From positions 800,001-864,000 of the forward strand of contig CAVYGB010000002.1 in NCBI GenBank assembly GCA_963767925.1: a stretch of DNA of 64,000 nucleotides. The letters run 5' to 3'. The notes below the pieces were generated by a model. It made no database searches. It saw only the letters and a list, made by a program, of their open reading frames with translations, and was not told the origin of the DNA. This DNA comes from an uncultured delta proteobacterium (GTDB taxonomy: Bacteria > Myxococcota_A > Polyangia > Fen-1088). Position numbers and translations under genes: made by a program. This document shows positions 13,780 through 20,190 of the stretch, piece by piece; within the stretch, counting starts at the first letter, position 1; each line of letters begins with the position of its first letter.

Positions 13780-13929
13780 CGTACAGCCCCTCGGCTCGGC
13801 ACGGCGCGAGCCCACCCGCAGGGTAACACGGCAGTTGCCACGTCGGCCCCCCCCTCACCCGTTCCCTGTACCTGTCCCCTCTCCCCACGCCCGCAGACGG
13901 CCGCAGGGAGAAGGCAAACATGCAGCGGA

Positions 13930-14600
13930 CTGCCTGCCTCTGCCCTGCCTCCTGCCCCTGCCCCCTGCCTCTCCCTCTGTCTGCCTCTGCCTCCGCCTCC
14001 GCCTCCGCCGCCTCCCTCTGCCTCCGCCGCCTCCCTCTGCCTCCGCCGCCTCCCTCTGCCTCCGCCGCCTCCCTCTGCCTCCGCCGCCTCCCTCCGCCTC
14101 CGCCGCCTCCCTCCGCCTCCGCCGCCTCCCTCCGCCTCCGCCGCCTCCCTCCGCCTCCGCCGCCTCCCTCCGCCTCCGCCGCCTCCCTCCGCCTCCGCCG
14201 CCTCCCTCCGCCTCCGCCGCCTCCCTCCGCCTCCGCCGCCTCCCTCCGCCTCCGCCGCCTCCCTCCGCCTCCGCCGCCTCCCTCCTGCCTCCGCCGCCTC
14301 CCTCCTGCCTCCGCCGCCTCCCTCCTGCCTCCGCCGCCTCCCTCCTGCCTCCGCCGCCTCCCTCCTGCCTCCGCCGCCTCCCTCCTGCCTCCGCCGCCTC
14401 CCTCCTGCCTCCGCCGCCTCCCTCCGCCTCCCTCCGCCTCCCTCCGCCTCCGCCGCCTCCCTCTGCCTCCGCCGCCTCCCTCTGCCTCCGCCGCCTCCCT
14501 CCTGTCTCCGCCGCCTCCCTCCTGCCTCCGCCACCTCCCCGCCTCCCTCCTGCCTCCGCCGCCTCCCTCCTGCCTCTGCCTCCGCCTCGCCTCTGCCTCT
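13930..14600. repeat. Nearly A-free pyrimidine-rich tandem repeat made of 19/20-bp units
   Basis: Blocks of CCTCCGCCGCCTCCCTCTG (~4), CCTCCGCCGCCTCCCTCCG (~10) and 20-bp CCTCCGCCGCCTCCCTCCTG (~7), with CTCTGC-type edges. Confidence 0.95.
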
Positions 14601-14810
14601 GAAAACGCGAAGCTGAGTAGCAGTTGGGGCGGTGGGCATGTGGGCAAACGCGTCTGCGCGTCTGCGCGTCCGCTCTGCGCGTTTGTCCAAGGGGTGTGGG
14701 CAGTCTGCTGTCCACACCCCGGCATGTCCACGGCCCACCCCGCACCCCAGCGCCCCCCCATCCTCCCGTCCGGCGCCCGCCTTCACCCGAAGGCTGCGCC
14801 CGACCATCTG
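14591..14810. repeat. Left arm of the long inverted repeat flanking the RAYT gene
   Basis: GCGAAGCTGAGTAGCAG..GGGCAAACGCGTCTGCGCG..TTTGTCCAAGGG..GGCATGTCCACGGCCCACCCC; reverse complement at 15836-16033. Confidence 0.9.
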
Positions 14811-14878
14811 CCCGTGAGGCTCTCCCCCCAATTCACCACCGCATCGACGGAGGAGGGCGGACCATGAAACGATCCTAC

Positions 14879-14907
14879 TTGAAACACCAACGCGAACGAT
14901 CTAGTAT
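14879..14907 (+). promoter_or_regulatory. Sigma70-type promoter of the RAYT gene
   Basis: TTGAAA (14879-14884), 17-bp spacer, TAGTAT (14902-14907), in an AT-rich patch. Confidence 0.65.
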
Positions 14908-14919
14908 TGCCTCATTCAA

Positions 14920-15597
14920 ATGAAGAGTCCCCAACGTCGTGCTCAACTCGCCTTGCCCCGGACGTCCGGGTGGGGTGGACGTCGGAAGGGGGCCGGCCGG
15001 CCTCCGATTCCCGGGCGGCGACGGCCGGCGCCGCATCGGGTGCGGGCGCCCCACAAGGGCGCCCACCCGTTGCACGTGACCTTGCGGGCCAGGTCGGGGT
15101 TGATCTCGCTGAGGAGCAAGCGAGTCTTCCAGGTGTTGCGGGATTGCTTTCGCGCCTCGAGCTCGGCGGCCTTCCGGGTTGTGCAGTTCTCGGTGCAGGC
15201 CGATCACGTGCACCTGCTGGTAGAGGCGGACGACAAGGCGACACTATCCTCCGGAGCCCGAGGGCTGGTGATCCGGAGCGCGCTGGCCATCAACCGGGCC
15301 TGCCAGCGCAGCGGACGAATCTGGGGGGACCGGTATCACGCGCGCGAGCTGACGACACCACGGGAGGTACGCACCGCACTCGTGTACGTACTCATGAACC
15401 ACAAGAAGCACGGCCTGCGCGACCGCGGGCACATCGACCCCTGCTCCTCGGCCCCCTGGTTCGACGGCTTCCGCGTCCACGTCGTGCCTCCGACCGACCC
15501 CCCGGTCACCTGCATGCCCCGCACCTGGCTCGCCGCCGTGGGCTGGCGACGCCGCGGCCTGATCGACCCCACCGAGTCCCCCAAGACCATTCAGTGA
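14920..15597 (+). mobile_element. REP-associated tyrosine transposase (RAYT; HUH/Y1, IS200-like superfamily)
   Basis: PLHVTLR, HUH motif DHVHLLVE, DRYHAR and catalytic Tyr in YVLMNHKKHG. Confidence 0.88.
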
Positions 15598-15756
15598 ACG
15601 CGCCCGGCCTCGCCGCTGGAGGCGGGCTCTACACGGGGGAAGCGGGCGGCCCTCGGGTGGGAACAGGCGCCGGCGGAGATGGTCGGCGTGGCGTGGGCGC
15701 GCGGCGGGCGCGGAGCGGGGGGGCGGCGCGAGATGGTCGGGGCAGTGTCGGCGCGC

Positions 15757-15880
15757 GGCGGGCGCCGGACGAGGGCTGTGCGAGATGGTGGTGGGCGCAG
15801 CGTCGACGGGCGGCGGGCGCCGGACGAGGGCTGTGCGAGATGGTGGTGGGCGCAGCGTCGACGGGCGGCGGGCGCCGGAC
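15757..15880. repeat. 55-bp tandem repeat (2 copies plus a partial copy; degenerate copies from ~15670)
   Basis: GGCGGGCGCCGGACGAGGGCTGTGCGAGATGGTGGTGGGCGCAGCGTCGACGGGC at 15757 and 15812. Confidence 0.9.
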
Positions 15881-16033
15881 GGGGAAAGGGGCGGCGCTCG
15901 GGTGGGGGTGGGCCGTGGACATGCCGGGCTATGGACAGCGGACTGCCCACAGCCCTTGGACAAACGCGCAGACGCGTTTGCCCACATACCCACAGCCCCA
16001 GCTGCTACTCAGCTTCGCTTTTCAGAGGCAGAG
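15836..16033. repeat. Right arm of the long inverted repeat flanking the RAYT gene
   Basis: Reverse complement of 14591-14810 with scattered substitutions and indels. Confidence 0.9.
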
Positions 16034-16170
16034 GCAGAGGCAGAGGCAGAGACAGAGGCAGAGGCAGAGGCAGAGGCAGAGGCAGAGGCAGAGGCAGAGG
16101 CAGAGGCAGAGGCAGAGGCAGAGGCAGAGGGCAGAGGCAGAGGCAGAGGCAGAGACAGAGGCAGAGGGCA
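16024..16170. repeat. (GAGGCA)n microsatellite, ~24 units
   Basis: Directly visible hexamer run. Confidence 0.97.
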
Positions 16171-16327
16171 GACAGTGGCAGTGGTGGGACGGGGCGGGGG
16201 CGGAAGGGAGGTGGGCGGGAGTCCGGGCGGCTGATCAGGGTGAGGTGGGGCCGACTTGGCGACCGCCCTCACCCGTTCCCTCGCCCCACGGCCGCAGACG
16301 GCCACGGGGCGAGGGCAAACGGGCAGC

Positions 16328-16790
16328 GGGGGGACTGACCGAAACGGCTTGCCGCTCGCGGCGGTCGGGACGAACGGCTTAATCACCCGGTCTGGTGGCG
16401 GGGGGACTGACCGAAACGGCTTGCCGCTCGCGGTGGCAGAGACGAACGGCTTCATCACCCGGTCTGGTGGCGGGGGGACTGACCGAAACGGCTTGCCGCT
16501 CGCGGCGGCAGAGACGAACGGCTTCATCACCCGGTCTGGTGGCGGGGGGACTGACCGAAACGGCTTGCCGCTCGTGGCGGCAGAGACGAACGGCTTCATC
16601 ACCCGGTCTGGTGGCGGGGGACTGACCGAAACGGCTTGCCGCTCGCGGTGGCAGAGACGAACGGCTTCATCACCCGGTCTGGTGGCGGGGGGACTGACCG
16701 AAACGGCTTGCCGCTCGTGGCGGCAGAGACGAACGGCTTCATCACCCGGTCTGGTGGCGGGGGGACTGGCCGAAACGGCTTGCGGCTCGA
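16328..16790. repeat. 72-bp tandem array, 6 full copies plus a partial copy
   Basis: GGGGGGACTGACCGAAACGGCTTGCCGCTCGCGGTGGCAGAGACGAACGGCTTCATCACCCGGTCTGGTGGC at ~16328, 16400, 16472, 16544, 16616, 16687 and 16759. Confidence 0.95.
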
Positions 16791-16797
16791 GAGGGGG

Positions 16798-17670
16798 TTA
16801 TTCGGGTGCGAGCATGGATTTGGTGTGGGCGATGACGGCTTGGTTGCCGGTGCGGAGGCCCCATTGGGCGCCGAGGGCGGGGAAGGAGGCCCAGCGTTCG
16901 GCGGCGTGGTGTGGGAGGCCGGGCCAGGTGCGGCCTCCGGCGCGTTCGAACAAGGCGATCAGGCGGGCCAGGGACTCGGGGCCGAAGCAGCCGTGGAACA
17001 TGGCCAGGTCGATCGACGGGTCGGTCACCTGGGCTTCGGTCCAGTCGAGGATGCCGGTGACGGCGCCCTCTCCGTCGAGCAGCATGTGGCCGGGGTGCAG
17101 GTCGCCGTGGACCAGGGCCAGGTGGGGCGGCCAGCCCTCCTCGCTGTCGAGCCAGCGGTGCCAGCGCGCCCACAGGGCGTCCGTTGGCTGCAGCACCTCC
17201 CGGGTCTCCTCCATGGCCTTGCGCAGGGTCGCCCGCGATTCGGCCAGGTCGCGCACCGGCACGCCGGCGTTGCGGACGGCGTCGACCGGTACCGCCTGCA
17301 GGGCGGCGAGAGACTCTGCCATCGAGGCCAGGAAGCGCTCGGGCGGGGCCTTCTCGTTCATGTTCCAGATCGGCCCCTCTGCCCCGATGGTGACCGCCGG
17401 GGTGCCCGCCAGCCGCGGGTAGGCGATCAGATCGAGGGCGTGCACCCGCCAGTCGGGGACCGCCACCGGCATGCGCGGCTGGAGCAATCGCAGCACGCGC
17501 GCCTCGACCCGGGCCGACTCCACCACCTCCGGCCGCCGCGGGGTCCGCAGCACCCAGGCCTGGCCCGCCTCGTCGCGGGCGTGGACGACCCGGAAGTCGA
17601 GGCCGGTGCCGTCCACCTCCGGCGCGGCCGCCCCCACCTCGAGCCCGTGGCGTCGGGCCAGGGCGAGCAG
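16798..17670 (-). CDS. mph: Macrolide 2'-phosphotransferase (Mph family) domain, probably the C-terminal part of an HflX fusion
   Basis: LLALARRHGL, GLDFRVVHA, WVLRTPRR, LVHGDLHPGH and GILDWTEA motifs. Confidence 0.85.
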   Translation of the reverse strand: MLALARRHGLEVGAAAPEVDGTGLDFRVVHARDEAGQAWVLRTPRRPEVVESARVEARVLRLLQPRMPVAVPDWRVHALDLIAYPRLAGTPAVTIGAEGPIWNMNEKAPPERFLASMAESLAALQAVPVDAVRNAGVPVRDLAESRATLRKAMEETREVLQPTDALWARWHRWLDSEEGWPPHLALVHGDLHPGHMLLDGEGAVTGILDWTEAQVTDPSIDLAMFHGCFGPESLARLIALFERAGGRTWPGLPHHAAERWASFPALGAQWGLRTGNQAVIAHTKSMLAPE

Positions 17671-19977: not shown

Positions 19978-20190
19978 CGACACGTGCACGTCTTTCGAGC
20001 ACGAGCACGAGCACGTCTTTCGTGCACGTGCATCCGTCAGACGTGAACGGAAGACGTGCTCGTGATCCGTCAGACGTGAACGCCACACCTGCTCGTGCTC
20101 GCGCTCGAAAGACGTGCAGGAATCCGTCAGACGTACACGACGCACGTGCTCGTGCTGGTGCTCGTGCACGAAAACACGTGCACGCGACCT
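19978..20190. repeat. Intergenic quasi-palindromic CACGTG/GAGCAC repeat element
   Basis: GAGCACGAGCAC versus GTGCTCGTGCT arms; three internal ATCCGTCAGACGT copies. Confidence 0.8.

Follow-up and report, generated by a model that had tools for sequence, protein, structure and literature searches.

INTRODUCTION

Transposases of the HUH/Y1 type need single-stranded DNA, which they are thought to take from replication forks. In TIRtrons, or TIRYT elements, a Y1 tyrosine transposase gene lies between long terminal inverted repeats (TIRs), which are partly self-complementary and also occur as dimers or without a gene, according to the main text of the description (PMC3733652). In REPtrons, a low-copy RAYT gene accompanies a dispersed, high-copy repetitive extragenic palindrome (REP), a hairpin of 20 to 40 nucleotides (nt) tagged with GT[AG]G; accounts of these systems include strand-specific imperfect stems, tail-to-tail dimers, CT-rich flanks, and a model of nick-primed amplification (PMC3333891, PMC8266576, PMC5581495, PMC6006769), already proposed for bacterial interspersed mosaic elements (BIMEs; PMC3333891). 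HUH enzymes of the TnpA-REP family act on single-stranded DNA, and TnpA-REP is described as binding the folded single strand, cutting at C|T (in Escherichia coli, the CT dinucleotide) 5' or 3' of the hairpin, and joining any 3'-C (PMC8266576). Here, we describe an HUH/Y1 element in 64,000 nt of DNA from an uncultured delta proteobacterium (the window; contig C2, positions 800001 to 864000, of the source genome, G000), the arms of which begin with a sequence that resembles the unwinding motif of the replication origin, oriC.

We observed linkage between gene and arm, covariation within the arm, asymmetry between its strands, a match to origins, microsatellites at a fixed distance from the first DnaA-box-like motif (box 1), and a genome-specific expansion of the gene. 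We propose that this is a multicopy HUH/Y1 element with oriC-like arm starts, where opening by DnaA, nicking at C|T, mis-rejoining, and slippage may together make the repeats grow. For this reading as a whole, we consider the balance to be even.

RESULTS

The gene and its family

At the center of the element is a 225-amino-acid (aa) open reading frame at 14920 to 15597. The sole Pfam domain found in it is Y1_Tnp (PF01797; E = 1.2e-7), which confirms that a Y1/HUH gene sits within the mirrored structure, as a first-pass annotation of the window had proposed. The features of the element, with positions in the window, are as follows.

13932..14601 (+): left array of CCTCTG-derived 19/20-mers, TCTG end at the arm boundary (Tandem Repeats Finder [TRF], 19-mer x34, 91% matches; three variants counted 11/9/6)
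14602..14630 (+): left arm 5' module made up of a short A-run, the three NAN trios GAG, TAG, and CAG phased as at origins, and a GGGGC spacer (oriC-trained profile 27.9, rank 8 of 18.67 M; passes the basal unwinding system [BUS] rule)
14627..14736 (+): left arm three-way junction, predicted + strand fold with G.T wobbles, loop 1 enlarged by TCTG-starting duplications (covariation, predicted folds)
14631..14647 (+): tandem pair of DnaA-box-like motifs in the left arm (GGTGGGCAT / TGTGGGCAA), which double as the 5' strands of stems P1 and P2
14879..14919 (+): sigma-70-like promoter (TTGAAA-17-TAGTAT) and conserved ATTCAA/ATTCAT-type leader ahead of the ATG (same arrangement in 10/10 copies printed)
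14920..15597 (+): HUH/Y1 transposase gene, 225 aa (PF01797; H96-x-H98, Y156, with H96 and Y156 invariant in homologues; fold nearest TnpA-REP 4er8)
15734..15881 (+): 55-bp tandem repeat, 2.7 copies, between gene and right arm
15902..16026 (-): right arm, inverted, with TCTG, A-run, trios (16009-16000), box pair (15994-15978), and three-way junction (covariance model match, E = 6.9e-38; oriC profile 31.8, rank 4)
16023..16172 (-): right microsatellite, (CCTCTG)n on the arm's strand (TRF, CAGAGG x24.7)

In an alignment of 97 homologues, H96 and Y156 are invariant and H98 is kept in at least 90%. Conserved blocks lie at the N terminus (WGGxRxGAGR) and the C terminus (DPCSS/PRTWL), and the tyrosine motif reads YVLMN(F/H)xKH (YVLMNH here, YVLMNF in the consensus). 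The predicted structure (pLDDT 87) has TnpA-REP 4er8 as its top Foldseek match (E = 6.5e-6), with the HUH motif and tyrosine aligned to those of 4er8 and a C-terminal tail of two short helices only; a search of the PDB from the single sequence returned nothing significant. The protein had been called a RAYT, an assignment that the evidence does not support: it scores 45.4 bits against RAYT model NF047646 (NCBIfam cut-off, 80), and it lacks the Y---NP motif given for RAYT class 2 in PMC6006769. Against the IS200 model NF033573, it reaches 22.6 bits (cut-off, 55).

The family comprises 2904 of 3978 candidates and is present in 37 of 151 class genomes, with up to 19 scored per genome. Named homologues come from Myxococcales, Polyangiales, Binatus, and other deltaproteobacterial metagenome-assembled genomes. 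G000 (9.34 Mb in 13 contigs, GC ~71%) holds 11 near-full-length PF01797 copies plus fragments. These copies form their own clade (support 100/100) relative to the three copies of G001, another genome of the same genus, whose genes share 61 to 63% aa identity with them. Pairwise identity within G000 does not exceed 94.5%, and differences fall mostly at third codon positions (four pairs counted). Together, the separate clade, the third-position differences, and the identity ceiling lead us to conclude that the gene spread inside the G000 genome, though not very recently.

Straight after the -10 box (window 14902-14919), most homologue loci carry a TATTCAA/AATCAA-type motif that is kept to ~40% protein identity, including at loci whose start codon is farther downstream. 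It is possibly the inner boundary of the element or an autoregulatory site.

Inverted arms linked to the gene

The ~200-bp inverted arms of the first-pass annotation are real: BLAST aligns 14595-14809 with 15838-16029 at 79% over 217 columns, with a conserved core at 14598-14744 and 15902-16026 and a module of ~125 nt. Two methods recovered the same set of 11 arms in G000, and all 11 lie within 700 bp of a gene copy, which supports the idea that arms much bigger than REPs are tied to an HUH/Y1 gene. A genome-wide search of G000 found no solo arm away from a gene. Both arms are present at two of the 11 near-full-length copies, one arm at seven, and none at two; the inner minisatellites, at the position of the 55-bp tandem repeat, differ between copies.

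The arm is a three-way junction of ~110 nt with TCTG loops, which also seed duplications, and the motif GTGGRCA is repeated in all three of its stems. In the fold alignment, 99.7% of cells are paired and 11 of 34 pairs show compensatory change, a level that 0 of 500 shuffles reached, although the arms are related sequences and the figure is therefore no probability. Every one-sided change is tolerated via G.T on the CTCTG-reading strand. The strand that bears the trios is also the one predicted to fold.

G001 has seven complete arms and one that is 5' truncated and without a repeat. One lies upstream of a gene, two tail-to-tail pairs (C154 and C118) lie upstream of genes, and one pair (C463) occupies a 3-kb locus with no gene. 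Two arm types are common to both genomes while the genes are genome specific, indicating that arms reshuffle relative to genes. The same layout, with both arms inverted, recurs in an independent lineage at 36% aa identity (locus L221). From its occurrence as single arms, tail-to-tail pairs, and a gene-less pair, the arm appears to behave like a large REP/TIR substrate that is mobile partly independently of the gene. It is probably the cis substrate of the HUH/Y1 enzyme. Strict arm patterns found nothing in viral contigs and matched 3 of 301 phylum genomes, G000 included; a plasmid BLAST gave four short partial matches, and the two of these that were inspected proved uninformative.

Homologues at ~41% identity in another genome (G039; L023, L033, L040, and L044) are bracketed by a different inverted repeat of ~250 nt, without an origin-like score, which suggests that the transposase family swaps arms between lineages. 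Two more inverted-repeat elements resembling miniature inverted-repeat transposable elements (CTAGTCCCCTGGAA... and GTGCACCGC...) are inserted beside Y1 copies in G000 (C10:~706100, ~649000; C2:~2016700).

Resemblance of the arm to the oriC unwinding motif

The first-pass annotation missed the likeness of the arm to the unwinding motif of oriC. The outer 33 nt of the arm match this motif, with DnaA-trios, a GC spacer, and two DnaA boxes. A covariance model of the arm had matches in 13 of 151 class genomes, one of them in a dnaA-dnaN interval, and for this reason an origin profile was built from the dnaA loci of relatives. The origin set consisted of dnaA loci from 31 family genomes, with 28 of 30 loci anchored at the first TGT(G/T)(G/A) past the AT-richest window. 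The 33-nt profile was trained on 27 foreign dnaA-dnaN origins and no arms; three training origins that were mis-anchored (leave-one-out score below 0) stayed in the profile and were left out of the fold-back test only.

When this profile was run over the 18,673,154 positions of G000, the 11 arms took ranks 1 to 11 (scores 21.5 to 35.8; next, 20.3). None of 31 column-shuffled profiles lifted any arm above background, and the arm scores overlap the leave-one-out scores of the origins themselves (22.6 to 44.8 for 23 of 27). Used by themselves, the boxes gave the arms weaker ranks (3 to 273), and with only the 18 nt before box 1, no arm 5' module came among the top 400, so that the signal is their combination. 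In both arm types, which differ elsewhere, the spacer and the two boxes are phased as at origins, and a G001 arm has 20 identical nt in common with the origin of G011. A relaxed canonical pattern found no clusters of canonical DnaA boxes at the arms; the match requires the box variants of the lineage. In type-A arms, the box-proximal trio is TTG. Under the published BUS rule (at least three NAN trios 0 to 16 nt from a box, at most two mismatches), 11 of 18 arms pass, including both arms in the window.

A covarying fold-back at oriC itself was considered and rejected, with own-versus-other pairing at chance (mean rank 0.47, P = 0.65, n = 25). The arm model does match 7 of 30 dnaA loci at E < 0.005, and since pairing there is no better than chance, these matches reflect inverted boxes only.

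Microsatellites at the outer arm ends

The simple repeats that the first-pass annotation saw mirrored outside the arms occur far above chance. In the window they are the 19-mer x34 on the left, ~670 bp as assembled, and CAGAGG x24.7 on the right. Counting arms and adjacent microsatellites genome-wide, as had been suggested, gave a perfect run of a 5/6-mer (at least three copies, within 60 nt) at 8 of the 11 outer ends and at 0 of the 11 inner ends; the other three outer ends carry imperfect or short runs. Such runs occur in 65 of 20000 random windows (0.33%) and at 1 of 222 ends of a neighboring 109-locus repeat family. No perfect CTCTG-unit run in the 9.3-Mb genome, of which there are 19, is farther than 900 bp from an arm end.

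Units are locus specific (CCTCTG, TCTCTG, GCTCTG, ACTCTG, GCGCTG, GTTCTG, and CTCAG), and all contain CT. Type-A units mostly differ from one another by a single substitution (NCTCTG), and the repeat at type-A arms ends in CTG or CAG 29 to 30 nt from box 1. Microsatellites also occupy arm ends in G001 (870 contigs) and are therefore not peculiar to the G000 assembly; in its gene-less pair, two diverged arms have the unusual unit GTTCTG in common. At L221, (GTCTC)x14 lies outside one arm.

Arm-like modules in other genomes

More distant arm-like modules stand beside the Y1 family at 15 of 93 loci, in five genomes (E of at most 0.01). Among 25 arm-model matches inspected, seven accompany a Y1 homologue, and the others accompany helix-turn-helix (HTH) transposase-like, DUF222-HNH, or resolvase genes. 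The origin scores of such modules run from 0 to 30. Judged by eye, arm-like elements of three other families have box variants (TGTGGRCGG-TGTGG, TGTGA, and TTATCCACA) that resemble the origin-region boxes of their own hosts.

Some arm-like box modules lie just inside the end of an HTH transposase-like element, and others adjoin DUF222-HNH genes (L111, L112, and L124; L113, L123, L129, and L137), one of them with a perfect TTATCCACA in the closing stem. In G141 (L118, L135, L190, and L241), an arm-like module is found in tandem units of ~290 bp upstream of the Y1 gene, much like a BIME array.

A separate repeat family at the outer positions

The first-pass annotation described an outer inverted pair as a third layer of the element. 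The inverted match of 23/24 nt exists (21 matches, two mismatches, one gap), but its two sites are same-strand copies of a separate, abundant palindromic repeat with two hairpins and 109 loci, and we rejected the pair as an element layer.

13837..13928 (+): partial copy of the two-hairpin repeat, not part of the element (nhmmer 13864-13928, model 29-93; direct repeat of 16271-16329)
16238..16329 (+): complete copy of the same two-hairpin repeat, likewise outside the element (nhmmer model 1-93, E = 2.8e-16)

The apparent inversion arises because the 3' hairpin arm of one copy matches the 5' arm of the other. This repeat lies within 1.5 kb of the gene at 1 of 14 gene copies tested.

Genomic surroundings and other repeats

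The element is flanked by a cysteine-rich gene with a MopE motif on one side and an APH/Mph-like kinase gene on the other. The kinase gene (window 16798-17637, - strand, 279 aa) belongs to the APH family, with Mph macrolide phosphotransferase models as best matches at 234 bits, well under their cut-offs. Upstream of it is an HflX-like GTPase gene that looks frameshifted or fused in the G000 assembly. Directly after the right copy of the abundant repeat comes a 72-bp tandem repeat (window 16326-16789; 6.5 copies, 96% matches), for which G000 has no second site.

Both dnaA and dnaN carry frameshifts in G000 (C2:1349001-1350362), which points to indel errors in the assembly. The public sequencing run X1 covers two 151-nt pieces of the gene only. 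In G001, the two flanks of the window's element were not found together as an empty site.

The (CCCGTT)n cassettes of G000 have CTAG-bounded ends (16 loci, among them C2:1078206, 1552813, 1805263, and 2138772), and one copy is interrupted by an insertion sequence. One lies just downstream of the armless Y1 copy at C2:1804k. Some of the cassettes enclose what we take to be the start of a four-helix-bundle gene. Another repeat family combines GAGCAC/GTGCAC microsatellites with ACGTGAACGGAAG-type units (window 19981-20098; G000 C2:246496, C10:325048, and C1:26630), and no Y1 gene was seen beside its printed copies.

DISCUSSION

Comparison with described systems

The element works like a TIRtron or REPtron and falls under the loose definition of the former; the signatures tested set it apart from RAYTs, subclass-2.1 TIRYTs, and IS200 elements. 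The TIRtron arrangement of a Y1 gene between long inverted repeats appears at the two G000 copies with both arms and at L221, and the self-complementary, dimeric, and gene-less repeats have counterparts in G001 (C154, C118, and C463). In contrast to TIRtrons as set out in PMC3733652, the element has three-way-junction arms, oriC-like trios with a box pair, and outer microsatellites. The GGGGWSAS of subclass 2.1 in that source is absent from the arm, which reads GGGGCTG/GGGGCGG by eye, as is a C-terminal HTH/DnaA_C-like domain from the protein. The main text of PMC3733652 makes no mention of DnaA, microsatellites, or myxobacteria; its Fig. 9 and alignment file might hold related TIRs.

With REPtrons, the element shares an HUH motif with one catalytic tyrosine, carried on a TnpA-Y1 fold closest to 4er8, and the stem, dimer, flank, and amplification features outlined above. 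It differs from the published descriptions in having a 110-nt junction rather than short tagged hairpins (GT[AG]G in type-A arms is 5 nt off the stem foot) and a multicopy gene with all 11 arms at its side. Like IS200/IS605 elements (TnpA-IS200), it has a Y1 HUH fold and has spread to many sites in one genome. However, the protein is longer, with N- and C-terminal extensions, than a core-only TnpA with Y---Q; identical arms in inverted orientation replace small subterminal hairpins; the locus has no tnpB; and no two copies exceed the 94.5% identity given above.

The BUS of oriC, as reported in PMC8287927, has NAN trios, a short GC spacer, and tandem DnaA-box-like 9-mers, which the arm repeats in the same order and phase and in lineage-specific sequence. 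Unlike that system, the arm modules lie at transposon ends in 11 copies, with boxes inside hairpin stems and a TTG box-proximal trio (type A). Compared with a complete oriC, they are without an extended AT-rich unwinding region and away from dnaA-dnaN. Precedents for DnaA at a transposon end and for a helicase-loading DnaA box in a hairpin are the Tn5/IS50 outside end and the A-site of the ABC-primosome, which are described with a single box and no trios and with a DDE transposase (Tn5) or none (A-site) (PMC3347997, PMC3105425). The open-access literature, taken mostly as titles and the openings of abstracts, held no description of trios-plus-box or microsatellite-capped arms on a Y1 element.

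A proposed mechanism and its alternatives

In the mechanism that we propose, host DnaA would bind and melt the outer end of the arm, or else helicase would be loaded where the hairpin stems bring boxes together again. The exposed strand at this outer end would then be cut by the transposase at C|T, a specificity assumed here by analogy with TnpA-REP. Out-of-register rejoining or slippage would then add 5- to 6-nt units, some of which would later be duplicated into 19/20-mers. We lean slightly toward the arms being functional DnaA sites and place the idea that nicking by the enzyme drives the microsatellites just short of an even chance. More tentatively, the ends of this HUH transposon may be miniature replication origins, in which a copied BUS recruits DnaA to provide the element's own single-stranded DNA independently of forks and each cycle of nicking and rejoining writes a microsatellite at the boundary.

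Several observations weigh against this mechanism. Seven of the 18 arms fail the BUS rule, mainly because a TAG trio has become TCG; the rule itself is also permissive, with matches at 498 sites in G000. Whereas a real origin has a long AT-rich region after its trios, the arms have a short A-run and then a GC-rich microsatellite. The origin of G000 itself, in the dnaA-dnaN interval at C2:1.349 Mb, has no second box at the usual position and scores only 7.1. Of 165 homologue loci beyond G000 (a few fetched twice), only three had a neighboring sequence with an origin score of at least 18, all in G001, and a strong match is thus confined to one genus. Template switching can give compensatory changes in DNA palindromes without selection. 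The genes that flank another gene copy are syntenic in G001 without the element, but other genes intervene, and no clean empty site came to light. Arm-like modules beside other mobile genes are generally without microsatellites. Microsatellites occur at 30 of the 165 outside homologue loci, many without CT (GCGGGC, GACCGC), and G000 has microsatellite cassettes with no adjacent copy of the Y1 gene, namely, the 16 (CCCGTT)n loci (nine printed, mostly one other cassette type). The last two points also count against an earlier suggestion that the HUH enzyme is required for the repeats, which was not upheld.

The alternative that fares best concerns the repeats. The microsatellite may simply be inherited with the arm and change as the polymerase slips in the ordinary way next to a hairpin that stalls forks or a site bound by DnaA, with the transposase not its maker. 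We consider this a real possibility, if below even, and it is compatible with either function of the arm. Inheritance would account for type-A units one substitution apart, for the (CCCGTT)n cassettes, and for the many different units at homologue loci. Slippage alone sits less well with repeats on the outer side only and at a fixed distance, with their near absence from the ends of the other hairpin family, and with the presence of a mutL match; the GTTCTG shared by diverged arms of the gene-less pair hints at end-to-end exchange.

It is rather unlikely, in our view, that the arm is a large REP/TIR-type hairpin read by the transposase only, with an oriC likeness left over from origin capture or from convergence of a GTAG tag and GC stem, no role for DnaA, and microsatellites made by C|T nicking on lagging-strand single-stranded DNA. 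In 13 of 18 arms, GT[AG]G does lie no more than 20 nt from box 1, the broken trios are tolerated, GTGGRCA stands in all three stems as a recognition motif might, and TIRtrons with self-complementary TIRs, dimers, and solo copies have been described (PMC3733652). Nevertheless, two otherwise different arm types share the origin phasing of spacer and boxes, box variants in other families appear, by eye, to track those of host origins, and the module also flanks non-HUH mobile genes, pointing to a host factor rather than to one transposase.

Less probable still is that the arms are DnaA-box hairpins of the A-site/ABC-primosome type, which would prime second-strand synthesis on an excised single-stranded intermediate without opening the chromosome. 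On one strand, folding restores every box-like motif to duplex form within the three stems, a hairpin-borne DnaA box is reported to load DnaB-DnaC on single-stranded DNA (PMC3105425), and broken trios would be tolerated. Yet trios and GC spacer, unneeded for such priming, stand in origin phase in 11 of 18 arms, and no circle or junction was observed. That the arm is a structured RNA, as its G.U-type asymmetry and covariation could suggest, is very improbable given that the window region and 15 arm-bearing loci yielded no credible Rfam match, that the folding strand precedes the promoter at the left arm and is antisense at the right one, and that arms can point either way with respect to the gene.

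Returning to origin-like transposon ends, these would, if real, give a direct answer to how REP- and TIR-associated enzymes get their substrate and multiply their repeats in vivo, and they would mean that the BUS is open to hijacking away from oriC. If the modules at the ends of other mobile genes are likewise origin-like, then origin mimicry would be a general transposon strategy. The locus is also a defined site where microsatellites lie at a fixed distance from a nuclease substrate and, as such, a tractable model for how microsatellites originate in bacteria.

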